A DNA stretch of 64,000 nucleotides, from NCBI GenBank assembly GCA_000092065.1, contig CP000584.1; one strand, written 5' to 3'. Below, piece after piece: positions 374-33,191 of this stretch; within the stretch, counting starts at the first letter, position 1, and each line of letters begins with the position of its first letter. A program made the translations under genes and the position numbers. This stretch comes from Ostreococcus lucimarinus. Lineage: Eukaryota. The notes beneath the pieces were generated by a model, which was given only the letters and a program-made list of their open reading frames with translations, was not told the origin of the DNA and searched no databases.

Positions 374-1417
374 CTACTGATTTGGTCGCCACTTGGGCGT
401 CTGCGGCGATTTCTGCAACACGCCGGATTCGCGGAAAGTCACGCTCACGCGTCTGTTTCCGTGTAAATTCTCGTTTGCGATGGAGTGCATGTAATCATAT
501 CGCGTGCTACCGCTCTGAATCTGTAAGCTTCGTCGCGGCAACCGCACGTCGACGCGCTTGCTCGCAAACTTTTCGTGAGAATACGTCATCGTACAATCGC
601 TGCAAAGCGACAGGTTAACGAGGATGTCACTCGAGAGCTGACGATCGTCACAGTGCGGAGTCAGCACCGAACCCAAGTCCTTGCGATAGTTGATCGCGTT
701 GCACTCGTTCGGAGTGAAATGCTTCAACGTCTCGTGCGCCGCGGCGAATTTTGCGACGACGAGGTCTCGTAAAATCTTCGGCATCGGCACTCGCGCGGGC
801 TCGACGCAGCGTTTCAATAGATTCGGCTCGACGCCGTACTTCTTCCCCTGATGCGCACCATTAAAACTCGAATCTCTCCACGGACCCGCGGCGATGTCGT
901 CGTCCAGCCAGTCCACTATCCGTCGCTCCTCGTCCTCCGTGATGAAATTTTCCAAGATATAGTGCCCGGGGAGTTTCACCTTTGCCTGCAATTTCGCCCC
1001 GCGCGCGAGCGCCGCGAACGCATCCGACCTCGCGCCGTCGCTCCTCGCGCCGCATTCGCCCGCGCGCGCGATCCATCCGCCCTCCAAGTCATCTTTCGCC
1101 ACGAACCCCGTCGTCGTTCGTCCCGTGTGCGCGCGCCGTCCTCTGTAATCCTCTCGCACGTCCCTCCGCTTCTCGCTCGACGGCATCTTCCCCGCCTCGT
1201 CGCGCAGGCGCGGACGCTTTCCGTCGCACGCGCTCGCGTGCGCCTCGATCACCGCGCTCGACACGTGCCGCGAGCACATCGGGCACGGCACGAGCGTCGA
1301 CGGTTTTCGCGCCGATGCCGACGGCTTTCGAACGCCACCGCGCGTCGTCGTCGTCGTCGTCGACTTGGCGCGTCGCATGAGCGCTTGAAACGCATCGCGC
1401 GCGTCGTCGCGCGTCAT
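374..1417 (-). CDS. AlkB-like 2OG-Fe(II) dioxygenase with an N-terminal Rad18-type UBZ4 (C2HC) zinc finger
   Basis: The ORF starts at an ATG (cat at 1415-1417 on the + strand). The N-terminus has CPMC-x12-H-x3-C, a C2HC zinc finger. The C-terminal half has the 2OG-oxygenase signatures HCDD (HxD), a second His (YMHSI) and RVSVTFR (RxS). The pattern NAINYRKDLGSVLTPHCDD resembles ALKBH proteins. Confidence 0.7.
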   Translation of the reverse strand: MTRDDARDAFQALMRRAKSTTTTTTRGGVRKPSASARKPSTLVPCPMCSRHVSSAVIEAHASACDGKRPRLRDEAGKMPSSEKRRDVREDYRGRRAHTGRTTTGFVAKDDLEGGWIARAGECGARSDGARSDAFAALARGAKLQAKVKLPGHYILENFITEDEERRIVDWLDDDIAAGPWRDSSFNGAHQGKKYGVEPNLLKRCVEPARVPMPKILRDLVVAKFAAAHETLKHFTPNECNAINYRKDLGSVLTPHCDDRQLSSDILVNLSLCSDCTMTYSHEKFASKRVDVRLPRRSLQIQSGSTRYDYMHSIANENLHGNRRVSVTFRESGVLQKSPQTPKWRPNQ

Positions 1418-1720: not shown

Positions 1721-4714
1721 ATGATGATCTCTGGCGCGTCGGCGACGCTGCGACGCGACGCGACGGCGCGATGCGCGGGCGGGAGGACGACGCGCGCGCG
1801 CGCGACGATGAAACGCGCGATGGTGCGTCGGCGCGCGGTGTCGTCGACGGGAAACGCGGAGAAGGATGCGCGATCGGCGGTGTCGATCGAGATCGATACG
1901 ACGACGGAGGCGGATTACACGGTGATCCACATTCGAGACGCGCCGAATAAGCCCGGGACGCTGCGAGTGATCACCACGGCGCTGGCGGACTTGGGGTTGA
2001 ATATCGATAAGGCGATCGTGGACGCGGCGAACGACGATCGGGTGAGCGATTGCTTTCACGTGACGGATACGAGCGGGGCGAAGGTGACGGACGCGGAGGA
2101 CGTGGAGAACATTCGGACGTGCTTGGCGATGATTTTGAAGACACACTTCCAGAGCGGGAGCGATGTGGCGCGACACGATGGGGATGAACGTCGGAGCTCG
2201 GCGCCGCAAGGTACGGATGAGCGAAGACAGCACGACTTGTTGTATTCGCTCATGGACAGGTATCTGCGAAACGACGTGATGAGCGTGCAGGAGTCAATCG
2301 TGAATCACGTCGAGTACACGATGGCGAGAAATAGGTACCAGTTTGATGACTTTGAGGCGTACAACGCGGCCGCATTTTCGGTTCGCGATCGTCTCATCGA
2401 AAGCTGGAACGACACGCAGCAATACTTTCGAGAAAAGAGCCCGAAGCGCGTGTACTACATGTCGATGGAGTTTTTGATGGGTCGCTCGTTGTTGAACTCG
2501 CTGTACAACTTGGACATCAAGCCGCAGTACACCGAAGCGTTGCGTCAGCTTGGATACGAGTTAGAAACGCTCGTAGATAAGGAACGCGACGCCGCGCTCG
2601 GGAACGGTGGTTTAGGTCGCTTGGCTTCTTGCTTTTTGGACTCGATGGCGACTCAGGATCTTCCGGCGTGGGGGTACGGCATTCGATACCAGTATGGTAT
2701 GTTCCGTCAAACCGTGAACGATGGCTTCCAGCACGAGCACCCCGATTACTGGCTGAACTTTGGTAATCCTTGGGAAATCGAGCGTCCATACATCAGCTAT
2801 CCCATCAAGTTTTACGGCGGCGTAGAGAAACAAATCATCGACGGCCACGAAGTCAACAAGTGGGTGGGTGGCGAAGATATCAGCGCCGTAGCGTACGACA
2901 ACCCGATTCCGGGCTGGAACACGCCAACGACGATCAACCTCCGATTGTGGAGCGCGAAACCATCGCGGGAGTTTGACTTGGAGTCGTTTAACACCGGGGA
3001 TTACGTGCAAGCGATTTTGGCAAAGCAGCGCGCTGAAACGATTTCATCCGTGCTCTACCCGGACGATCGTACGTACCAAGGCAAAGAGCTTCGCTTGAAA
3101 CAGCAATACTTCATGGTGTCTGCCACCATCCAGGACATTATTCGCCGCTACTTGGTGAATCACGACTCGTTTGACGAGTTCCCGAACCAAGTCGCGGTGC
3201 AGCTGAACGATACGCATCCTTCTCTCGCCATCCCGGAGTTGTTGCGCCTGCTCATCGATGAGCATGGGCTTTCGGACACGAAGGCTTGGGAAATCACTTC
3301 GAAGGTCTTCAGTTTCACCAACCACACCGTGCTCGTGGATGCGCTCGAGAAATGGCCGGTCGATTTGCTCGAAAAGGTGCTCCCGCGCCACATGCAAATC
3401 ATTTACGAAATCAACTGGAAATTCATCAGCGATCTCAGCCAGAAGCGCGGCGAAGACTTTGCGCTCTTTGGTCGTACGAGCATCATCGAAGAAACTACGG
3501 AAGGAAAACTCGTGCGCATGGCGCACCTCGCCATGGTCGGCTGTCACACCGTGAATGGCGTGGCCGAGGTCCACAGCGAACTTCTCAAGACGCGCATGTT
3601 TCCAGACTTTTACGAGTTGGCGCCGGAGAAGTTTCAAAATAAGACAAACGGCGTCACCCAACGCCGCTGGCTCGCCTTCAGTAATCCGGCCCTCCGTGAT
3701 TTGATCTCCAGCAAACTTGGCGGCGACTCTTGGATTCGCGAATTGGACATGCTCCATGATTTGGACAAGTACGCTGAAGACCCCGAGTTCCAAGCGCAGT
3801 GGCGCGCCATCAAGCTCGAGAATAAGAAGAAGTTAACGAAATTGATCGAGGAAAAGACGGGGACAGTGGTGAGCCCAAACGCTTTGTTTGACATTCAAGT
3901 CAAGCGCATCCATGAGTACAAGCGTCAGTTGCTCAACGTATTCTCTGTGATTCACCGGTACAATAAGATCAAGGCGGCGACGCCGGAGGAGCGCAAAGAA
4001 ATGGTACCGCGCGTCGTCGTCATCGGCGGCAAGGCTGCGCCGGGTTACGACATGGCCAAGCGCATCATCAAGCTCGTCTGCGCGGTGGGGGAGAAGGTGA
4101 ACAACGACCCTGACGTGGGTGACTTGCTTAAGCTCGTTTTCATCCCCGACTACAACGTCAGTAGCGCCGAAGTCATCGTACCCGCTGCGGAGCTGTCCCA
4201 GCACATCTCCACCGCCGGCACGGAGGCGTCGGGAACGTCCAACATGAAGTTTGCCATGAACGGTTGCTTGATCATCGGCACCATGGACGGTTCCAACGTC
4301 GAAATCGCAGAAGAGATCGGCAAACGTAACATGTTCATCTTCGGTGCGAACTCGGCAGATGTCCCAATCTTGCGCTCGGAGCGCGCGCGCTTCAAGCCGC
4401 CGCCCGAATTCGACGGCATAGTCGAACAGATTCGCGGCGGCGCCTTTGATTGGGCAGACTTCCTCAATCCGGTGTGCGACGCCGTGCACGGTGGTGCCGA
4501 TTACTACTTGCTCGCAAACGACTTCGAGGATTACATCCGCGCCCAAGACCTCGTCGATGAAACATACAAGGATCAGGCCAAGTGGACCACGATGAGCATC
4601 AAATCCACCGCCGGTTCCGGCAAGTTTAGCAGCGACAGAACGATTCGCGAGTACGCTAAGGATATCTGGGGCATCGAACCGTGCCGCCGTCCGGAACCTG
4701 GAAATCCGCGATAA
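1721..4714 (+). CDS. Alpha-1,4-glucan (starch/glycogen) phosphorylase of family GT35, with an N-terminal presequence and ACT domain
   Basis: The 997-aa ORF has an ATG at 1721. Residues about 65-140 (YTVIHIRDAPNKPGTLRVITTALADLGLNIDKAIVD...) look like an ACT fold. The rest is a canonical phosphorylase, including the pyridoxal-phosphate motif EASGTSNMKFAMNGCLIIGTMDGSNVEI and the NGGLGRLA signature. The Arg/Ala/Thr-rich N-terminus suggests organelle targeting. Confidence 0.9.
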   Translation: MMISGASATLRRDATARCAGGRTTRARATMKRAMVRRRAVSSTGNAEKDARSAVSIEIDTTTEADYTVIHIRDAPNKPGTLRVITTALADLGLNIDKAIVDAANDDRVSDCFHVTDTSGAKVTDAEDVENIRTCLAMILKTHFQSGSDVARHDGDERRSSAPQGTDERRQHDLLYSLMDRYLRNDVMSVQESIVNHVEYTMARNRYQFDDFEAYNAAAFSVRDRLIESWNDTQQYFREKSPKRVYYMSMEFLMGRSLLNSLYNLDIKPQYTEALRQLGYELETLVDKERDAALGNGGLGRLASCFLDSMATQDLPAWGYGIRYQYGMFRQTVNDGFQHEHPDYWLNFGNPWEIERPYISYPIKFYGGVEKQIIDGHEVNKWVGGEDISAVAYDNPIPGWNTPTTINLRLWSAKPSREFDLESFNTGDYVQAILAKQRAETISSVLYPDDRTYQGKELRLKQQYFMVSATIQDIIRRYLVNHDSFDEFPNQVAVQLNDTHPSLAIPELLRLLIDEHGLSDTKAWEITSKVFSFTNHTVLVDALEKWPVDLLEKVLPRHMQIIYEINWKFISDLSQKRGEDFALFGRTSIIEETTEGKLVRMAHLAMVGCHTVNGVAEVHSELLKTRMFPDFYELAPEKFQNKTNGVTQRRWLAFSNPALRDLISSKLGGDSWIRELDMLHDLDKYAEDPEFQAQWRAIKLENKKKLTKLIEEKTGTVVSPNALFDIQVKRIHEYKRQLLNVFSVIHRYNKIKAATPEERKEMVPRVVVIGGKAAPGYDMAKRIIKLVCAVGEKVNNDPDVGDLLKLVFIPDYNVSSAEVIVPAAELSQHISTAGTEASGTSNMKFAMNGCLIIGTMDGSNVEIAEEIGKRNMFIFGANSADVPILRSERARFKPPPEFDGIVEQIRGGAFDWADFLNPVCDAVHGGADYYLLANDFEDYIRAQDLVDETYKDQAKWTTMSIKSTAGSGKFSSDRTIREYAKDIWGIEPCRRPEPGNPR

Positions 4715-4893
4715 CCTTCTTCCCACGTTTTCACTATTGCTGTATCAGTAACTACCGCTGTAATTCCATCTACACGCATCGTCCGTGCGCGCCGACCCCT
4801 CGCGTCCCGGTCAACTGTTTACTTTCAAAACGTCATCGTCGTCATCACCGGTCACCCTCAAACCTCGGCGTCGCGCGCTCGCGCGCCCCGGTC

Positions 4894-6846
4894 ATGATTC
4901 CAGACCTCTTACTCGCCCTCATGGGCGTCCCCGGCGACGTGTTCGAGCTCGATCCGACGTCGAACGACGCCGTCGTCGACCGACTCAGAGTCGCCGATGG
5001 CTTGCACTTTATAAAACGACACGAAGTCGAACGACTGAACGCCCTCGTGCGCGTCGGCGGCGCGTACCGAACGCTCGAACGCGTGACGACGATCGAAAGC
5101 ACGAAAGCGTCGTTCGCGACGACGCCGCAGTCGCTGTACCGACGAGCGCTCGCGATCGGAATTCAAGAAAGATTGCGCGAGTACGAGGAGGAAATTTTAA
5201 AACTGGAACAAGAGACGCTGCGACGAGGAACGACGAGCGGAGCGGTGAATGCGATCGAAAGCGCGCTGAGCGATGATGGTGCGGTGTTGACGATGATGTG
5301 CGAACGCTTTGTCTCGGTGTTTGAAGGGGAGAATGCGCTGAGGGGGGGAGATGTGATTCGACAAACGCGCGACGCGTGGCTTCGAGCGGGACATCCCGCG
5401 GCGCGCGAGGCGTGCGGGAGATTGTATTGGAAGGTGATGCAGGTGATGATGCAGCAATTGTTAGGGTGGTGTGCGCACGGGACGATCGTGGATCCGTACG
5501 ATGAGTTTTTCGTGCGGACGATCGCGCGGAAAGAGGGGTACGAGGTGAAGGATGACGCGAAGGATGACGGGAGCGTGATTTGGCACGAGAGCCATCGCGT
5601 GGCATTGGAACGTTTGCCGCCGGGGGTGGAGCTGTCCACGGCAGAGTCGGTGTCGTTCATCGGACGTGGCGTGCGTATACTGACACATCCGACGAGAGGT
5701 GGGAATATGCGTGGTCATTTCGATGCGGATGGGTACGCCATGCGCGCGACGTCGCGCATTCGGCGTCTCGCCGCGGCGGAGTCATTCGATCCTCGCGACT
5801 TTGAAGCGGAGGTGGAGGCTATGCGCTCGGAGATCGCGGCATCGTTGGGTGAGGTGTTGTTGAACGATTCTGGCTTGATATCGCACTTGAACGCGATGTG
5901 TGGGTTCTACTTTCTCGGAAAGGGTGACTTTTATACCACGTTTTTGGACGAGGCGCGCGAGCTCTTCTCGTTGCCACCCAAACCGGGAAGCGCGACGCGC
6001 GAGCTGTCCACGCCGTTCGCGCAAGCCGCCGTGAGTACGATCGTCGACGAAGCATTAGCATCAAGGTTTAGATTAGCGTACACGTCTGCGTTGACGCAGC
6101 AGTCTGAAGATGAAAAATCTTCGACAACCGCGACGCCGTCTAGCGCGTTTGTGCCTCGCGTGCGTATTCCCGAGTATGACGCTTGGGACGGCGTTAGCCT
6201 CGAGTGTGAGGTTCACTGGCCCATGGGTATTTTTCTCACAAACGACACCCTGGATAGATACAAGACGATATTTAAGTACCTCTTCCGGCTCAGGCGCGTG
6301 CACTTTGATCTTCAAGATGCGTGGATTCATTTACGTCGAAGCGGTTTGACGCGGACGCTTCGACTTCGTCACGTGATGGATCAGTTGATTGAAAACTGGC
6401 GCACGTATATTCAAGTCGATGTCATCGAAACGGAGTTCAAGAAAATGCTCGATAAGATTGCTGAAACGACGGATTTTAACAAGTGTGCGCTCGCACACCG
6501 GCAATATCTCGCCGCCATCATGGCGCACTCATTTCTCGACGTCGGTTCAATCATGACAATTTTCGAAGACATTTTCGGGCTCGCGCGAGAGCTGTGCGAG
6601 ACGAGCGCGCGATACGCCAACGGACAACCGCTACCTGCAGATTGGGACGAGCGCATCGCGTATCTGACTCGGCAGTTTGAAAAGAACTCTGTTGAACTTT
6701 ACGACAACTTGCGCGGCGGTTACGTCGTAGAACTGCCCGAATTGCGAGCGTTGTTGATGCGATTCAATTTCAACGAATTCTTCGAGAACACGACGTCGAT
6801 GGGGGTGAACTTGACCGCGATGAAGTTCGATAACCTAGATATGTAA
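4894..6846 (+). CDS. GCP4: Gamma-tubulin complex component 4 (GCP4, GRIP-motif protein)
   Basis: The internal ATG at 4894 gives MIPDLLLALMGVPGDVF, matching the GCP4 N-terminus (MIHELLLALSGYPGSIF). Conserved GRIP1/GRIP2 regions are present (DFYLLGRGELF-like GDFYTTFLDEA, and WPMGIFLT / YKTIFKYLFRLRRV / YIQVDVIETEF). The upstream part of the track ORF (4681-4893) overlaps the phosphorylase 3' end and is discarded. The stop lies inside TGTAA. Confidence 0.8.
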   Translation: MIPDLLLALMGVPGDVFELDPTSNDAVVDRLRVADGLHFIKRHEVERLNALVRVGGAYRTLERVTTIESTKASFATTPQSLYRRALAIGIQERLREYEEEILKLEQETLRRGTTSGAVNAIESALSDDGAVLTMMCERFVSVFEGENALRGGDVIRQTRDAWLRAGHPAAREACGRLYWKVMQVMMQQLLGWCAHGTIVDPYDEFFVRTIARKEGYEVKDDAKDDGSVIWHESHRVALERLPPGVELSTAESVSFIGRGVRILTHPTRGGNMRGHFDADGYAMRATSRIRRLAAAESFDPRDFEAEVEAMRSEIAASLGEVLLNDSGLISHLNAMCGFYFLGKGDFYTTFLDEARELFSLPPKPGSATRELSTPFAQAAVSTIVDEALASRFRLAYTSALTQQSEDEKSSTTATPSSAFVPRVRIPEYDAWDGVSLECEVHWPMGIFLTNDTLDRYKTIFKYLFRLRRVHFDLQDAWIHLRRSGLTRTLRLRHVMDQLIENWRTYIQVDVIETEFKKMLDKIAETTDFNKCALAHRQYLAAIMAHSFLDVGSIMTIFEDIFGLARELCETSARYANGQPLPADWDERIAYLTRQFEKNSVELYDNLRGGYVVELPELRALLMRFNFNEFFENTTSMGVNLTAMKFDNLDM

Positions 6847-8311: not shown

Positions 8312-10219
8312 CTAGTCTACGATGCGTATGCTCGGCGGGTGATGCGCCACTGCGGGCGGTGCGGCGACGCGCGCGCGAGCGGTGCGCTCGGCGACGACGG
8401 CGACGGCGGGCGAGGCGACGACGGCGCCGTCAAAGGCGCCGATTTTCCAGTAAAACGCCGCCAAGAGGAGGACGACGGGCCAGATGAGCTCGAAGTTCGG
8501 ACTGCTGGCGCAGTAGACGCACAACGCGTGGATGTGTTGTGCGATGCGATAGATGACGACGGCAGCGCGCGTCACACACGGGACGAGGACGTTTCGCGCG
8601 GCGGCTCGGAGGGCGAAGTAGACGCTGCCTCCGGGCGTGGCTTCTATGGCGAGATCGACGATTGGATCGTCTTCCTCTTCTTTAAACGTCTCCAGACGCC
8701 CGTGCGGTCCTATCGAGACGTCATGAAGATTGACGTGCTCGTGTGTTTCCGATTTCGTCGCGCGTCGGCGCGCATCCGATCGCATGGGCGCTTCGCCGAC
8801 GACGGACATCGCGCGGCGATTCGCCGCCGGCCTTCGCCGCCGCGGACTTCCTAAATCTCCCGGTTCAAGGCTGTACACGGACGTCCCGTCGTCGGACATG
8901 TCGTCGACTCGACTGAGAATTTCGCCCAGATCGCTTTCGTCGTCAAACGCGCTGCCGTCTATTTGGTTCATGGCTTGCAGCCAGCGCTGCGTGGCGATTT
9001 GCCGCGACGCCTCTGAACGCGCGAGCTCGTCTTGAACGTTGGTGAGTTGTTCTTCAAGCTGCGCTCGACGCATGTTCTCATCGGCGAGCCAGACGATGAA
9101 TCGTTTACGTCCACCGACGGATCCCATTTCCTCCTCGTCCTCGTCTTCTTGACCGAACTGAAATCGCATCTCGTCGACTATGCCCGACATCGCGTTTTCC
9201 ACGATGGCGCTCAGTTCGTGATTGATGGCATCCGTGACGCTCGACACGACTTGCTCGCCCTCGCGCTTATTCGTCTGCAGCGCGGGCGAATCCATCGCGC
9301 GCTCTAACGCCGATTTCACCGTCTCCAGGACGAGCTTCTCGACTTTACCTTCCCATACCTTCACCGCCGCCGTCGTTCGCTCCAACGGCGTCCCGCCGTC
9401 TCTCCGCTCTTCGCCATCCACCTGCGAATTCGTCGTCACCGATTCCGGGGCGCCACCGCGATTCTCCGTTTCCATCACTTGCAACAACGTCGTGCGAAGC
9501 TCACCGATGATGTCCGCCGCCTGCGAAAGCTTCTTCTCTTGTTCGCGAACCGTCTCCTCGGCTTCTTCGGCGCGTCGCGTCGCGTCCTCGTCCCGCTCCT
9601 CCCCCGCCCCTCGTTCGTACTCGCTCAATTTCTCCTCCAACGCCCGTCGCGCTCGCCTTTCGCTCTCCACGAGATCGAACAGCTCCTTCACCGTCTCATC
9701 CAGCGCCTCCTCCTCCTCCTCCTCCTCGTCCCGCGTCGCCGGCGTCTCCGTCCCCCTCGCGCGCAATTCCTCCCCCAATCGCGCGTTCTCCTCGCTCAAC
9801 CGCGCGTTCTCCCCCCGCTCTCGCGCCAACATCCGCACCGCCCCCCCCGCACCGTCCCTCGCGCCCTCCCATCCCGCCCGTTCCCTCGTCCCGTCTCGCC
9901 CGTCTCGCGCGTCCCGCGCGTCCCGCTTCAGCGCCTCTTCCGCCGCCCGCGTGCTCTCCAGCACGTCCTCCACGCGCACGCGCGCCCCGACCGTTCGTTC
10001 GCCCGCGTTCGCGCTTCCCTCGCGCGTCGTCGCGCGCTTCCCTCGCGTCGTCGCGCCGTCCCGTCGCTTCGCGCGCGTCGTCGCGCCGCGCGTCTCGCGA
10101 TGGCGCGTCTTCCCCTCGTCGTCGCGGCCGACGAACGGGTACCGCGCCGACGTCGTCGGCATCGCGCGACGCGCGCGATCGATCGACGCGTCGTCGTCGA
10201 ACACGCGCGTCGTCCGCAT
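8312..10219 (-). CDS. Hypothetical acidic coiled-coil protein with a C-terminal hydrophobic segment
   Basis: A long Glu/Arg/Ala-rich heptad-like region (EEEEEEEALDETVKELFDLVESERRARRALEEKLSEYE...) is followed by a hydrophobic tail (IWPVVLLLAAFYWKIGAF). The start was placed at an internal Met (MRTTRVFDDD) because the first 100 aa of the track ORF are Arg-rich and would leave under 80 bp before the neighbouring divergent gene. Boundaries are uncertain. Confidence 0.35.
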   Translation of the reverse strand: MRTTRVFDDDASIDRARRAMPTTSARYPFVGRDDEGKTRHRETRGATTRAKRRDGATTRGKRATTREGSANAGERTVGARVRVEDVLESTRAAEEALKRDARDARDGRDGTRERAGWEGARDGAGGAVRMLARERGENARLSEENARLGEELRARGTETPATRDEEEEEEEALDETVKELFDLVESERRARRALEEKLSEYERGAGEERDEDATRRAEEAEETVREQEKKLSQAADIIGELRTTLLQVMETENRGGAPESVTTNSQVDGEERRDGGTPLERTTAAVKVWEGKVEKLVLETVKSALERAMDSPALQTNKREGEQVVSSVTDAINHELSAIVENAMSGIVDEMRFQFGQEDEDEEEMGSVGGRKRFIVWLADENMRRAQLEEQLTNVQDELARSEASRQIATQRWLQAMNQIDGSAFDDESDLGEILSRVDDMSDDGTSVYSLEPGDLGSPRRRRPAANRRAMSVVGEAPMRSDARRRATKSETHEHVNLHDVSIGPHGRLETFKEEEDDPIVDLAIEATPGGSVYFALRAAARNVLVPCVTRAAVVIYRIAQHIHALCVYCASSPNFELIWPVVLLLAAFYWKIGAFDGAVVASPAVAVVAERTARARVAAPPAVAHHPPSIRIVD

Positions 10220-10605
10220 CGCGCGCCCGCGAGTGCGCGTCGCGCGCGAATGAATGGAATGAACGAATGCGCGTCGCGAATGCGCCGAAGTGGTAAGTCC
10301 GTGTGTGAGACTTAGTCTCGAATCGTCGCGCGACCGGTCCGTGTGTGCGACTCGACGCGCGTGAGACGCGCGCGACGGCGGCGGCGCCGGCGTCGAGGCG
10401 CGCGACGACGCGACGCGGTGAACGAGTGTGCGCGCGGCGACGCGCGTTCTGAGAATACATCGTCCGAACTTGATCACGGTAATACGTGCGAGAAGGATCA
10501 CCGAACGTCGAGCGCGACGCGAGCGCATCGCGCGCGCATCGGGGCGCGGGGCGCAGAAGGAGGGATCGACGGCGACGAGAGCGACGCGCGAACGATACGG
10601 CGAGG

Positions 10606-12339
10606 ATGGCGTACCCGACGCTGACGAGCGGGGCGGCGATCGCGACGGTGGAGGCGACGACGCTGTTTTTTTTCGTCGTCGCGATGGCGTTCGCGGTGCG
10701 GAGGGAGGATGGGACGCGGATGACGGCGACTGAGTTCGCGAGGGCGGCGAAGAAGCCGAACGTGCGATGGATGTCGGCGAAGAACTCGCTGCCGTGGCAA
10801 CAGGTGGGGCTGTCGTACTTCGCGGGAGGTATGGGGGCGTGGGTGTACTACGGCACGACCGAGATGGGCGCGAACACGCGGTTGTCGTGGTGGGGGGTGT
10901 TCGGGTACTCGTTCGCGAGCGCGTCGCCGGCGATTTTGATGATCTTCATCGCGCCGACGATCAAGGCGTTCGTGGGCGACAAGAATGGGTTCTCGGTGAC
11001 TGATTTCGCGCTCACGCGATTCGGTCGTTGCATGCAACTCGTCGCCGCGTTCATGAGCACGATGTATCTGTTCATCTTCTTGTGCGCGGAAATTTCCACC
11101 ATCGCCAACGTCGCCGCGCTCTTCTCCGACGTGCAGGGTGCGGAATCCAAGTACTCTCGCGACGTCATTCTCGGCACGGTCTGCGTCATCACGCTTTCGT
11201 ACACCATGATTGCGGGTTTACCCGCGTCCGTGATCACCGATCGCGTGCAAGGCGTGATGATTACCGGTTTCATGTTGCTCTTCAGCTGCGTCGTGCTCGC
11301 GAAGAACGAAGTCACCGCGACGCAGATGCGCGCGGTGTCCAAGTCCACCACGAACGGGTTTGTCGTCATGATCACTCTGATCATCGCTACCCTCGGCGCA
11401 GAATTATTCAACGCCGGTCAGTGGCAGCGCGTGTACGCCGCCCGTTCCACGCAAGATCTTCGCAAAGGTCTCGCGTTGGGCGCCGGTATGATTTTTGTCG
11501 TCATGTGGTTCTTCGGTATTCTCGGTGTCACCGCCGTGGCCAAGTACCGCGCCGATTTCGACGACTTCTCCAGGCTCCATTACCTTGCGTTCTTCGAACT
11601 CGCCGAAGGTCTCGCAAAGGGTTGGCACGTAATCATTCTGATTTTTGCAACCTCGCTTTGCGTGAGTTCGGTGGATTCCATCCAAAACGGCTTAACTTCT
11701 GTGTTATACCGTGACATCTTGAACTACGATCTTCCAGCAAACTCGGTGCGAGTAATTTGCGCTGCGTTGAATGTCGGTGCCATTTTCGTCGCCGTCGATA
11801 AGATTGACGTCTTGTCTCTCTTTTTGATGGTTGACTTGGTGTGCGCGCTCGCCGCGCCGGCGCTCTACCTCGGTCTCATCCGCAAAGACATCAACTCCTT
11901 CATCATCGCACCGACCGAGCTCGGTGCAATCATGGGCGTTGTGTGTGGCTGCATCGCCGTCATCGTTCAAGGCGCCGTCCTCGATTTGGACGGCGCGTGG
12001 ACCGATAAGTACGGCGCGGTGCACTCCACCAGGGCCGCGGCCATGGTTAACCCGCCGATTGTTCACCGCGCGTGGGGTCCGTTTGGAAACTTTTGGCTTC
12101 CGGACGGCACAACCATCGAAGGCGGTGGCTTGCAAGCCTTTGGCGGCAAGCGCACTCTCCTCACGTTCATCCTCGCCGTCGTCTTCTCTGCTTTCGGTAC
12201 CATGTTCTTCTCTTGGCTCGACGTGTACTTTCGCGGCGAATCCGCCCGTAAACCGTTGATTAAAGTCAAGTTGCTCAAGAAGGGCAGGACAGGCATCGAG
12301 GAGAAACCTCTCGAGGCAGTCGAGACGACGACGGTGTAA
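10606..12339 (+). CDS. Polytopic membrane transporter, sodium:solute symporter (SSF)-like
   Basis: The ATG at 10606 gives MAYPTLTSG. There are about 13-15 predicted hydrophobic helices spread over 578 aa. Gly/Tyr-rich loops (LSYFAGGMGAWVYYGTTEMG) resemble SSF/DUR3-type carriers. The stop is embedded in TGTAA. Confidence 0.7.
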   Translation: MAYPTLTSGAAIATVEATTLFFFVVAMAFAVRREDGTRMTATEFARAAKKPNVRWMSAKNSLPWQQVGLSYFAGGMGAWVYYGTTEMGANTRLSWWGVFGYSFASASPAILMIFIAPTIKAFVGDKNGFSVTDFALTRFGRCMQLVAAFMSTMYLFIFLCAEISTIANVAALFSDVQGAESKYSRDVILGTVCVITLSYTMIAGLPASVITDRVQGVMITGFMLLFSCVVLAKNEVTATQMRAVSKSTTNGFVVMITLIIATLGAELFNAGQWQRVYAARSTQDLRKGLALGAGMIFVVMWFFGILGVTAVAKYRADFDDFSRLHYLAFFELAEGLAKGWHVIILIFATSLCVSSVDSIQNGLTSVLYRDILNYDLPANSVRVICAALNVGAIFVAVDKIDVLSLFLMVDLVCALAAPALYLGLIRKDINSFIIAPTELGAIMGVVCGCIAVIVQGAVLDLDGAWTDKYGAVHSTRAAAMVNPPIVHRAWGPFGNFWLPDGTTIEGGGLQAFGGKRTLLTFILAVVFSAFGTMFFSWLDVYFRGESARKPLIKVKLLKKGRTGIEEKPLEAVETTTV

Positions 12340-29054: not shown

Positions 29055-32000
29055 ATGAGGGGGAAAACGACGCGCGCGGCGCGCGCGACGCGCGCGGCTC
29101 CGGTGACGCGCGCCGTCGCCACTGGACCGCGAGGACCGCTGAAGAAGAAGGGTGAGAGCGAAGAGGACAAGATCGAGGACATGTCTTCGGGATCTCGTGG
29201 GTTGTTCACGACGGTTGATCCGGAGGTGCGACGCATCGTGCCCGAGGCGAAGGGTCGCGTCGTGGTCAAGGTGACGTACGTCGTTTTGGAGGCGCAGTAC
29301 CAGTCCGCGCTGTCCGCGGCGGTGAAACAGATTAATGAAACCAACGACAAGGTGTGCGTCGAGGTTACCGGCTACTTGCTCGAGGAATTGCGCAACGCCG
29401 ATAACTTGGCGGCGCTCAAGAAGGATGTCGAGTCTTCAAACATCTTCATCGGTTCTCTCATCTTTATCGAAGAGCTCGCCGAGAAGATTGTCGAAATCGT
29501 GACGCCGTGCCGCGAAAACTTGGACGCGTGCTTGATCTTCCCGTCCATGCCGCAAGTCATGCGCTTGAACAAGCTCGGCACGTTCTCCATGGCGCAGCTC
29601 GGTCAGTCCAAGTCCGCCATCGCCTCGTTCATGCGCAAGAAGAAGGAATCCGGCGGCTTTGAGGAGGGCATGTTGAAGCTCGTCCGCACGTTGCCGAAGG
29701 TGTTGAAGTACTTGCCCTCGGACAAGGCTGCGGATGCGCGCAACTTCATGAACTCTTTGCAGTACTGGCTCGGCGGTTCCACGGACAACTTGGAGAACTT
29801 CTTGTTGATGATCTCCAAGGCGTACGTCCCCGAGCTCAAGGGCGTCGAGCTCACGGTGGCTGAGCCGGAAGTGTTCCCGGATGTTGGCATCTGGCACCCG
29901 TCCGCGCCGATGTACTACGAGGACTTGAAGGAGTACCTCAACTGGTACGACACGCGCAAGGACATCAAGTTCAAGGCGGACGCCCCGGTCATCGGTCTCG
30001 TGCTCCAGCGCTCGCACTTGGTCACGGGCGACTCTGGTCACTACGACGGTATGGTCATGGAGCTCGAAGCCAAGGGTGCGAAGGTCGTCCCGATCTTTGC
30101 CGGTGGCCTCGATTTCTCCGGCCCGATCGAGCAGTTCTTCTTTGACCCGATCACCAAGGGTGCGTACGTCGACACCGTCTTGTCGTTGACTGGTTTCGCC
30201 CTCGTCGGCGGCCCGGCGCGTCAAGATCACCCGAAGGCGATTGAATCCTTGAAGAAGCTCAACGTGCCGTACATGGTCACCGTCCCGCTCTCTTTCCAAA
30301 CCACCGAAGAGTGGAAGGATTCCACGCTCGGTTTGCACCCGGTGCAAGTCGCGCTCCAAGTCGCGCTTCCGGAACTCGACGGCGGCCTCGAGCCGATGAT
30401 CTTCTCCGGTCGCGATTCCAAGTCTGGTAAGTCTCACACTCTCGAAGATCGCGCGGCGCAAATCGCGAACCGCGCCATCAAGTGGGCTGGCCTTCGCAAG
30501 AAGACCGCCGCGGCCAAGAAGCTCGCGATCACCGTCTTCTCTTTCCCGCCGGATAAGGGCAACGTCGGTACCGCCGCGTACTTGAACGTCTTCGGTTCCA
30601 TCTACCGCGTGCTTCAAGGCTTGCGCCGCGAGGGCTACAACGTTGGTGTGCTCCCGTCCAGCGAGGAAGAGCTCATCAACTCCGTTCTCAACGACAAGGA
30701 GGCGCAATACGCGTCCCCGGACATGAACGTCGCCTACCGCATGCCGGTTGCCGAGTACCAAAAGCTCTGCCTCTACTCTGAGGACTTGCACGAGAACTGG
30801 GGCCCGCCGCCGGGCAACTTGAACACCGACGGCCAAAACTTGCTCGTGTACGGTAAGCAGTTCGGCAACGTTTTCATCGGTGTCCAGCCGACGTTCGGCT
30901 ACGAAGGTGATCCCATGCGATTGTTGTTCTCCAAGTCTGCGTCGCCGCACCACGGCTTCGCGGCGTACTACACGTTCCTCGAGCACGTGTTCCAAGCCGA
31001 CGCTGTCCTTCACTTCGGTACGCACGGTTCTCTCGAGTTCATGCCGGGTAAGCAAGTCGGTATGGCTGGTGTGTGCTACCCGGATCGCTTGATCGGTAAC
31101 ATTCCGAACATCTACTACTACGCGGCGAACAACCCCTCGGAGGCGACGATTGCCAAGCGTCGCTCTTACGCGAACACCATCTCGTACTTGACCCCGCCGG
31201 CTGAGAACGCTGGCTTGTACAAGGGCTTGAAGGAACTCAAGGAGTTGATCTCTTCTTACCAAACGTTGAAGGATTCCGGCCGTGGTCCGTCCATCGTCAA
31301 CACCATCATCTCCACCGCGATCACGTGCAACTTGGACAAGGATGTCGAGGAAATCCCGACTGATCCGGAGGCTGACGCCGCGAACTTTGATGCCGACACC
31401 CGCGATTTGATCGTCGGTAAGGTGTACCAAAAGCTCATGGAAATCGAGTCTCGTCTTTTGCCGTGCGGTCTCCACGTCGTCGGATGCCCGCCGTCCGCGG
31501 AGGAAGCCGTCGCCACGCTCGTGAACATTGCGTCCATCGACCGTGAAGACGAAAACATCACCGCGCTCCCGGGTCTCCTCGCGATGGCTGTCGGTCGCGA
31601 TATCGAGAGCATCTACAGATCCAACGATGCCGGTAACCTCGAGGACGTTCAGCTCTTGCAAGACATCACCGAGGCGTGCCGCTCGTGCGTCCGCACGTTT
31701 GTCACGGCTGCCGCCGACCCGTCTGGTCGCGTCGCCGCGGGCGCGCTCGCGAGCGTCGGCAAGCTCTTCGGTAGCGCTGCCGTCGCGGTTCCGTGGGGTG
31801 ATGCCTTGAAGGGCACCAAGTTTGAATCTGCTGATGTCGAAAAGATGCGCACTTTGTTCGATTACTTGCGCTTCTGCCTCGAGCAAGTTGTCAAGGACAA
31901 CGAGCTCGGCGCGCTCACCGAAGCCCTCGAAGGTCAATACGTGCTTCCGGGTCCGGGTGGTGACCCGATCCGTAACCCGAAGGTGTTGCCGACCGGTAAG

Positions 32001-33191
32001 AACATTCACGCTCTTGACCCGCAAGCGATCCCGACCGGTGCGGCTGTTGCCTCCGCCAAGGTTGTCGTCGATCGTTTGATTGAACGCGAGCGCGTCGAAA
32101 ACGGTGGCAAGTACCCGGAGTCCATCGCGCTCGTTCTGTGGGGTACGGACAACATTAAGACGTACGGTGAATCTTTGGCGCAAGTCATGTTGATGGTGGG
32201 TGTGCGACCTGCCCCCGATGCGCTCGGTCGGGTGAACAAGCTCGAGCTTATCAGTTTAGAAGAGCTCGGTCGCCCGCGCATCGACGTCGTCGTCAACTGC
32301 TCTGGCGTCTTCCGCGATTTGTTCGTCAACCAGATGAACTTGTTGGACCGCGCCGTCAAGCTCGCCGCTGAGCAAGACGAACCGGAGGACATGAACTTTG
32401 TCCGCAAGCACGCCGCTGAGCAAGCCGAGGAGCTTGGCTTGTCCATTCGCGAGGCGGCGACGCGCATCTTCTCCAACGCGTCTGGTTCCTACTCTTCCAA
32501 CGTCAACCTCGCGGTTGAAAACTCTTCTTGGAACGACGAGAGCCAGCTCCAAGACATGTACCTCAACCGTAAGTCTTTCGCGTTCAACTCTGATGCTCCG
32601 GGTGCTGGCATGGAAACGAGGAAGGAACTCTTCGAGTCTGCCTTGTCCAAGGTCGACGTCACCTTCCAAAACTTGGATTCTTCCGAGATTTCGCTCACCG
32701 ACGTCAGCCACTACTTCGACTCTGATCCGACCAAGCTCGTCGCCGGTGTGCGTAAGGACGGTAAGATGCCGGCTTCTTACATCGCCGATACGACCACGGC
32801 CAACGCTCAAGTGCGCTCTTTGTCCGAGACGATGCGTCTGGACTCCCGCACCAAGCTCTTGAACCCGAAGTGGTACGAAGGCATGATGGCGTCTGGCTAC
32901 GAGGGTACTCGCGAGATCCAAAAGCGTCTCAACAACACTCTCGGCTGGTCCGCCACGTCTGGTGCCGTCGACAACTGGGTGTACGAAGACGCCAACACGA
33001 CCTTCATGGCTGATCCGGAGATGCAAAAGCGCTTGATGGAGTCCAACCCGAACTCGTTCCGCAAGATGGTCGCCAACTTCTTGGAAGCCAACGGCAGAGG
33101 TTACTGGGAGACGTCCGAAGAGAACATCGATCGTTTGCGACAGCTCTATATGGAGGTCGAAGATAAAATCGAGGGCGTCGACAACGCGTGA
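29055..33191 (+). CDS. CHLH: Magnesium-chelatase subunit H (ChlH / GUN5-type, CobN family), plastid precursor
   Basis: The 1378-aa ORF is colinear with plant ChlH from the transit peptide onward. Matching segments include [82 protein letters not shown] and [24 protein letters not shown] lies about 190 nt after the stop. Confidence 0.95.

Follow-up and report, generated by a model that had tools for sequence, protein, structure and literature searches.

Two described alpha-glucan phosphorylases, PhoB (STA4, Cre12.g552200) of Chlamydomonas reinhardtii and LjPHO3 of Lotus japonicus, have the same domain order: a transit peptide, an ACT domain, a linker and a GT35 phosphorylase body without the L78/L80 insertion. 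An ACT domain placed N-terminally of the GT35 body defines the PhoB/PHO3 subclade, and a published tree places a PHOB protein of Ostreococcus lucimarinus inside it (PMC5005325). LjPHO3 is chloroplastic, has an N-terminal ACT domain and lacks L78; its over-expression leads to lower leaf starch, the purified recombinant protein was inactive, and regulation by amino acids via the ACT domain 'could not be excluded' according to its authors (Qin et al. 2016, PMC5005325). In that article, Chlamydomonas PhoB is also given as plastidial, the sta4 phenotype is reported under nitrogen starvation and PhoB is proposed to work within a multienzyme complex (PMC5005325). Chlamydomonas PhoB is active on zymograms. 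A further precedent is the Chlamydomonas alpha-amylase AMA2, which L-glutamine activates via an N-terminal ACT domain, a response nearly abolished by the L110G substitution (Scholtysek et al. 2024, PMC11190351). These authors aligned the AMA2 ACT domain with those of GlnD, ACR11 and STA4/PhoB, and stated that the influence of the STA4/PhoB ACT domain on phosphorylase activity had not been analysed (PMC11190351). A 2025 review of plastidial phosphorylases cites Qin et al. and does not discuss the ACT module (PMC12267944). Here we describe the ACT-phosphorylase gene found at positions 1721..4714 (plus strand, as are all features of this gene given below) of a 64,000-nucleotide stretch of O. lucimarinus DNA (assembly GCA_000092065.1, contig CP000584.1; hereafter, the window).

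A first-pass annotation of this DNA, made from the sequence alone, had recognised the fusion and contrasted it with canonical plant, animal and bacterial phosphorylases, which it held to be regulated by phosphorylation, AMP or the L80 insertion and not by an added ACT domain. The implied novelty overlooked the PhoB/PHO3 class, whose O. lucimarinus member is already in print (PMC5005325); the ACT-phosphorylase fusion is not new. In our best explanation, to which we give a probability of roughly 0.85, the gene encodes the prasinophyte orthologue of the plastidial alpha-1,4-glucan phosphorylases of the PhoB/STA4-PHO3 class, an enzyme in which a GlnD/ACR-type ACT domain is tied to a GT35 body. The present analysis documents its architecture, its predicted fold, the conservation of both across the family, the affinity of the ACT domain to the GlnD type and the point at which this domain is attached to the catalytic core.

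The gene is an intron-less open reading frame (ORF) of 997 codons plus stop. The ORF list and matches to Pfam and NCBIfam identify its product as a PhoB/PHO3-class alpha-glucan (starch) phosphorylase with an ACT domain. Its GT35 glycogen/starch phosphorylase body spans amino acids (aa) 187-985 (2279..4675) and matches the NCBIfam model TIGR02093 (glycogen/starch/alpha-glucan phosphorylase) in a single stretch, over positions 3-804 of 804 and with 1117.7 bits (cutoff 552.9), while Pfam PF00343 (carbohydrate phosphorylase) covers aa 274-985 with its full length (positions 1-713 of 713; 1033 bits, cutoff 27). The EASGTSNMK motif (TAGTEASGTSNMKFAMNG) is intact, and its lysine, Lys843 (codon 4247..4249), is invariant in 50 of 50 aligned sequences; we take it to be the pyridoxal-phosphate lysine equivalent to Lys680 of rabbit glycogen phosphorylase (GP). 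The sequence thus suggests a fully equipped, pyridoxal-phosphate-dependent phosphorylase body with no sign of a dead enzyme. An exact-sequence look-up of the 997-aa product returned no match; a 996-aa form starting at the second methionine is on record with 2 mismatches. A cluster member named 'starch phosphorylase' (P0270), with NCBI among its sources and present on 363 contigs, differs from the window protein by 1 residue, other members of the cluster are 1-3 residues away, and a metagenome scaffold in ENA differs from the gene at 8 of 2991 nucleotides.

The same body is found in the land-plant phosphorylases Pho1/PHS1 (L-type) and the cytosolic Pho2/PHS2 (H-type), and phmmer scores the solved chains 5lr8, 8r48, 9lpw and 4bqe at ~930 bits against the window protein. 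Pho1 is plastidial, as the window protein probably is, but it carries the L80 insertion. The body of the window protein aligns in one stretch with Arabidopsis PHS2 and animal GP, and in two stretches with the Pho1 structures (barley 5lr8, potato 8r48 and 9lpw). No insertion of at least 15 aa was detected at the L80 position among the aligned family members. By alignment, the L80 (L78) insertion is absent from the window protein, which hence lacks the hallmark of L-type Pho1/PHS1 enzymes. None of the solved Pho1/Pho2 chains aligns to the region occupied by the ACT domain.

The ACT domain extends over aa 55-144 (1883..2152), as delimited by its Pfam match, predicted fold and conservation in the family. 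Pfam PF01842 (ACT; gathering score 27 bits) matches aa 73-121, and its score rises from 28.9 bits for the full-length protein to 32.2 bits when the N-terminal 200 aa are searched and to 34.2 bits for an isolated 96-aa segment. The full-length AlphaFold2 model, built from a 50-sequence alignment, has a mean predicted local distance difference test score (pLDDT) of 79.5 and is disordered at aa 1-51 and 145-164; modelled alone from a 34-sequence alignment, the ACT domain reaches a pLDDT of 88.4 with the same secondary-structure elements. These are strands at 55-59 and 67-75, a helix at 80-90, strands at 94-104 and 107-115 and a helix at 125-144, and in the predicted structure they form the four-stranded antiparallel sheet with two helices on one face that characterises the ferredoxin-like fold. 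They also match the secondary structure that the first-pass annotation had read from the letters. The same permuted ACT variant has been described for AMA2, for tyrosine hydroxylase and for the ACT-like domains of plant bHLH factors (PMC11190351). The Pfam match, the predicted fold and the full-length TIGR02093 match together bear out the first-pass reading of an ACT fold that shares one reading frame with a full GT35 phosphorylase.

Two ACT residues are near-invariant, G79 in the beta-alpha loop and F112, the Phe of the D-x-F-x-V strand. Judging by the AMA2 paper, Phe112 most probably corresponds to Phe141 of AMA2, described there as 'strictly conserved'. Q2VA41 of C. reinhardtii, which we infer to be PhoB and not PhoA from the ACT annotation in PMC11190351, is 61-62% identical to the window protein over 97% of its length, and its ACT block matches column for column. 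A peculiarity of the Ostreococcus clade concerns aa 70-81 (1928-1963, HIRDAPNKPGTL), where the beta1-alpha1 loop has one extra residue in the five nearest Ostreococcus-like sequences (the window protein, P0003, P0004, P0007 and P0008). These read IRDAPNKPGTL versus the consensus V.-A.N.PGLL, so that the PGLL of the PhoB/PHO3 class becomes PGTL, with Thr at a position held by Leu, Ile, Met or Val in almost all other members. ACT domains classically contact their ligand through the beta1-alpha1 loop, so the Ostreococcus-like lineage may have a different affinity or specificity for the ligand.

The ACT domain is preceded by a presequence at aa 1-54 (1721..1882), recognisable by its disorder (pLDDT <30 over aa 1-51), composition and poor conservation. 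Its 54 aa include 12 Ala, 11 Arg, 6 Thr, 5 Ser and 3 acidic residues, and its length varies among orthologues. It behaves like a plastid transit peptide and probably is one, as targeting can be inferred by analogy with LjPHO3 and PhoB. The plastid-type presequence of the first-pass annotation is accordingly plausible, both orthologues having been reported as plastidial (PMC5005325). The position of the ACT segment, directly after a presequence-like stretch, raises the question of whether it is cleaved off with an unusually long transit peptide, or is an artefact of a gene model with a wrong start, and would have no function in the mature protein; several metagenomic orthologue calls indeed lack the segment. 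Those short calls are truncated models that start at an internal methionine in the conserved core. The segment is in frame without any stop codon, folds at a pLDDT of 88 and, unlike the presequence, is kept in 50 of 50 green-lineage homologues, making a non-functional segment hardly credible. The two outcomes that the first-pass annotation had named as fatal to an ACT domain, namely the lack of an ACT profile match together with disorder and removal with a transit peptide, both run against the observed 28.9-34.2 bits, pLDDT of 88.4 and conservation in 50/50 sequences. Mean identity of homologues to the window protein is 0.14 in the presequence, 0.36-0.38 in the ACT domain, where core residues are conserved, 0.16-0.24 in the following linker, ~0.50 in a helix ahead of the core and 0.69 in the catalytic body. 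This graded conservation shows selection on the ACT segment as a domain.

The first-pass annotation had advised a search for the same fusion in Mamiellophyceae and other algae, and we found it in 50 of 50 aligned homologues, from prasinophytes to seed plants. The best full-length matches are proteins of ~950-1070 aa distributed across Viridiplantae. They include Mamiellophyceae-like metagenomic homologues (66-87% identity) and chlorophyte proteins from Chlamydomonas reinhardtii (UniProt Q2VA41), C. schloesseri, Gonium, Volvox, Pleodorina, Astrephomene, Chlorella, Micractinium, Auxenochlorella, Ulva, Bryopsis, Cymbomonas and one pedinophyte. Streptophyte algae are represented by Klebsormidium, Chara, Closterium, Mesostigma and Chlorokybus, and land plants by the liverworts Marchantia and Riccia, Sphagnum, the fern Adiantum and the conifer Araucaria. 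The ACT block is present in all the aligned full-length homologues, even where the precomputed Pfam annotation lacked PF01842, with the consensus YTVI.V.A.N.PGLL...T..F.DLGLDV.KA.V......D.FYV....G.K. An index-free search of 1.84 billion representative sequences detected about a dozen 50%-identity clusters with an alignment spanning both ACT domain and core, a small number that fits a single family. When only the ACT region was used as query, a word-indexed search yielded a single fragment, which is uninformative on distribution.

The window protein has both traits of the PhoB/STA4-PHO3 class, the N-terminal ACT domain and the lack of the L78/L80 insertion, and ACT-bearing green-lineage proteins including Q2VA41 score 1229-2302 bits against it, compared with the ~930 bits of the Pho1/Pho2 structures. 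It is thus nearly certain that it belongs to this class, which these alignments indicate is conserved from prasinophytes to seed plants. We also considered whether Mamiellophyceae possess a close paralogue without the ACT domain, as ~760-830-aa matches with 71-75% identity might suggest. We rejected it, as these proteins start at internal methionines within the conserved core (e.g., MDSYAKNDVLSVQ and MRDRLIESW) and correspond to truncated gene calls. Metagenomic and MMETSP calls of related picoalgae lacking the ACT domain are P0017, P0041, P0052, P0055, P0076, P0085 and P0103 (starts inspected in P0017, P0041, P0055, P0085 and P0103), and an upstream intron is a possible cause of the short calls in these organisms. 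Given such truncated calls, automated surveys of domain architectures would undercount the ACT fusion.

As to its affiliation among ACT domains, the only NCBIfam models matched by the N-terminal region of the window protein are those of GlnD (PII uridylyltransferase), in the part that covers the C-terminal ACT domain, with PRK05092 as best match (positions 818-929 of 940, E 1.7e-12). The GlnD models were also matched by 34 of the 34 ACT segments of the family alignment (best E 6e-17), across which no other NCBIfam family appeared at E <= 0.001. The Pfam families detected in the same segments were PF01842 in 30/34 (E <= 0.01), the ACR9-like PF24931 in 25/34, the bHLH ACT-like PF22754 in 24/34 and ACR10_N (PF24914) in 7/34; PF26956 (ACT_ACR_D1) was a weak match in the precomputed annotation of a near-identical metagenomic protein. 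From the matches to GlnD and ACR models, we assign the module to the GlnD/ACR branch within the ACT clan, GlnD and the plant ACR proteins being its nearest relatives in sequence. The arrangement differs: GlnD carries its ACT domains as a C-terminal tandem pair that controls a nucleotidyltransferase/HD enzyme, whereas the window protein has a single N-terminal ACT domain on a glucan phosphorylase. A profile search with the ACT alignment retrieved only short ACT fragments (some of them named PII uridylyltransferase, one from Limisphaerales) and no new fusion architecture.

The closest structural neighbours of the ACT domain are the dimerisation domains of the bHLH ACT-like type. This likeness raises the alternative that the domain is mainly a ligand-independent module for dimerisation or protein-protein contacts, as in plant bHLH factors, which would steady a phosphorylase dimer or tetramer or recruit a branching enzyme or starch synthase, in line with the multienzyme complex proposed for PhoB (PMC5005325). 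In sequence, however, the affinity is strongest for and exclusive to the GlnD ACT domain, in 34 of 34 segments and with no other NCBIfam family; the near-invariant loop glycine is typical of ligand-binding ACT domains, and AMA2, with the same topology, does respond to glutamine. We consider a mainly structural role to be on the unlikely side, and it is in any case compatible with a role as a sensor.

Between the ACT domain and the catalytic core lie two further elements. A variable disordered linker covers aa 145-164 (2153..2212; pLDDT <50), with identity of 0.16-0.24 and many indels. Amid these otherwise unconserved positions, Arg151 (2171-2173), usually as Arg-Pro, is conserved in at least 90% of the members; possible roles are in contacts, in processing or as a hinge. 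The linker is followed by a pre-core helix with the motif LLYxLMDxYxxNDV (aa 165-186, 2213..2278; helix predicted at 165-180), in which L177, M178, D179, Y181, N184 and D185 are near-invariant. Through this helix, the ACT module is connected with the core of the phosphorylase at helix alpha-1. All matches to phosphorylases in the PDB start at query aa ~184-190, with the pre-core helix upstream of that, and aa ~185 aligns with residue ~23 of the rabbit muscle enzyme. This strongly conserved helix is a candidate element for signal transmission between the ACT domain and the core.

In animal GP, the Ser14 regulatory peptide lies close to the subunit interface, where helix alpha-1 begins. Regulation of the animal enzyme operates through its extreme N-terminus at the dimer interface, and the ACT domain, linker and helix of the window protein together take the place of GP residues 1-22. 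However, animal GP relies on its phosphorylatable Ser14 peptide and on allostery by adenosine monophosphate, whereas the window protein has no Ser14-type peptide and carries instead a folded domain of the ligand-binding type. To our knowledge, all GT35 enzymes are obligate dimers.

These features can be assembled into a putative mechanism for a GlnD/ACR-type ACT sensor acting on the phosphorylase. After removal of the transit peptide, the mature plastidial enzyme would start with the ACT domain and would be a dimer, as GT35 enzymes generally are. Because of this obligate dimerisation, and because the attachment site of the ACT domain corresponds to that of the Ser14 peptide in animal enzymes, the two ACT domains of a dimer would most likely pair near the subunit interface, comparable to the paired N-terminal ACT domains that AlphaFold predicts for AMA2 (PMC11190351). 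A metabolite reporting nitrogen status, with glutamine as the best candidate, would bind to the ACT pair, and its binding would be relayed via the pre-core helix to alpha-1. The outcome would be a shift in activity, in affinity for the glucan substrate, or in complex formation and partner binding, whereby both starch synthesis and phosphorolysis would be tied to nitrogen supply.

Several hints suggest such a sensor by analogy: the affinity to GlnD alone, the topology of AMA2 and its activation by glutamine, the near-invariant G79 and F112, and the nitrogen-starvation context of sta4. We consider the odds that the ACT module senses a small molecule to be somewhat better than even, and regulation of the window enzyme by an amino acid via this domain is a reasonable hypothesis. 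The guess of an amino acid, and of glutamine in particular, is made because of AMA2, a glutamine-activated ACT-alpha-amylase from a green alga in which a GlnD/ACR-like N-terminal ACT domain of bbabba topology is joined by helices to a starch-degrading domain, according to its published description. In addition, the response of GlnD to glutamine requires its ACT domains, as cited in PMC11190351. Nevertheless, AMA2 is a GH13 hydrolase whereas the window protein is a GT35 phosphorylase, and the response to glutamine has been demonstrated only for the former of the two; glutamine is thus a tentative proposal for the ligand.

Alternatively, the ACT domain might sense a carbon or energy metabolite, such as adenosine diphosphate glucose (ADP-glucose), glucose-1-phosphate, a nucleotide or cyclic guanosine monophosphate (cGMP), which would set the direction of the reversible reaction. 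ACT domains with ligands other than amino acids are known. ADP-glucose inhibits Chlamydomonas phosphorylases, as cited in PMC11190351, and STA4 was kept on a cGMP affinity resin (PMC11190351). However, the same paper cites rice Pho1 as inhibited by ADP-glucose too, and this is an L80-bearing type to which no ACT domain is attributed (PMC5005325), so that the ACT domain appears dispensable for the effect; none of three cGMP-captured enzymes tested responded to nucleotides (PMC11190351), and the ACT domain is of the GlnD/ACR sequence type. A carbon or energy ligand is therefore improbable.

At its most far-reaching, the reading of the ACT domain as a glutamine sensor would have it switch the plastidial phosphorylase between starch build-up and breakdown and, together with AMA2, represent an ancient coupling of carbon and nitrogen metabolism at the enzyme level in the green lineage, lost in Arabidopsis and rice. 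We regard this scenario as rather doubtful. If true, direct sensing of glutamine by the phosphorylase through its own ACT domain would connect nitrogen status with starch metabolism in a simple, post-translational way and could explain the sta4 phenotype reported under nitrogen starvation. The redirection of algal carbon into starch at nitrogen depletion has long been of both basic and applied interest, and the intron-less Ostreococcus gene would be a convenient construct for the biochemistry of PhoB/PHO3 enzymes.

The 64-kb window is gene-dense, apparently intron-less and has ~60% G+C, with ordinary green-algal nuclear genes. The immediate neighbours of the phosphorylase gene encode an AlkB-like 2-oxoglutarate-Fe(II) oxygenase, a gamma-tubulin complex protein and an M20 peptidase. 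Such a gene order is unremarkable for a eukaryotic nuclear genome and shows no functional linkage to the phosphorylase. The AlkB-like gene (374-1417, minus strand; PF13532 on the equivalent metagenome locus) is divergent from the phosphorylase gene, with start codons ~300 bp apart (1418-1720), and both probably share a bidirectional promoter region. Downstream, an ORF with a GTG start (4681-6846, plus strand) overlaps the end of the phosphorylase gene, stop included, by 34 nt. We rejected this overlap as an artefact of the ORF listing, as the corresponding gene of a near-identical metagenome scaffold, encoding a 650-aa gamma-tubulin complex protein (GCP_N/GCP_C), starts ~180 nt past the phosphorylase stop. 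Two long ORFs, of 738 aa (8312-10528, minus strand) and 617 aa (10486-12339, plus strand), had no Pfam match at E <= 1e-5; they may encode proteins particular to this lineage or, at such a high G+C content, be spurious. Elsewhere in the window are genes for the Mg-chelatase subunit H (CobN/Mg_chel, 1378 aa; 29055-33191, plus strand), a MutS homologue, an ABC1 kinase, a leucine-rich repeat/DUF4476 protein, an RSN1/OSCA-type channel, an OCRL-like inositol 5-phosphatase, a Dus dihydrouridine synthase and an ankyrin-HECT ubiquitin ligase. All of these seem to be intron-less, as expected for a nuclear genome of the Ostreococcus type.

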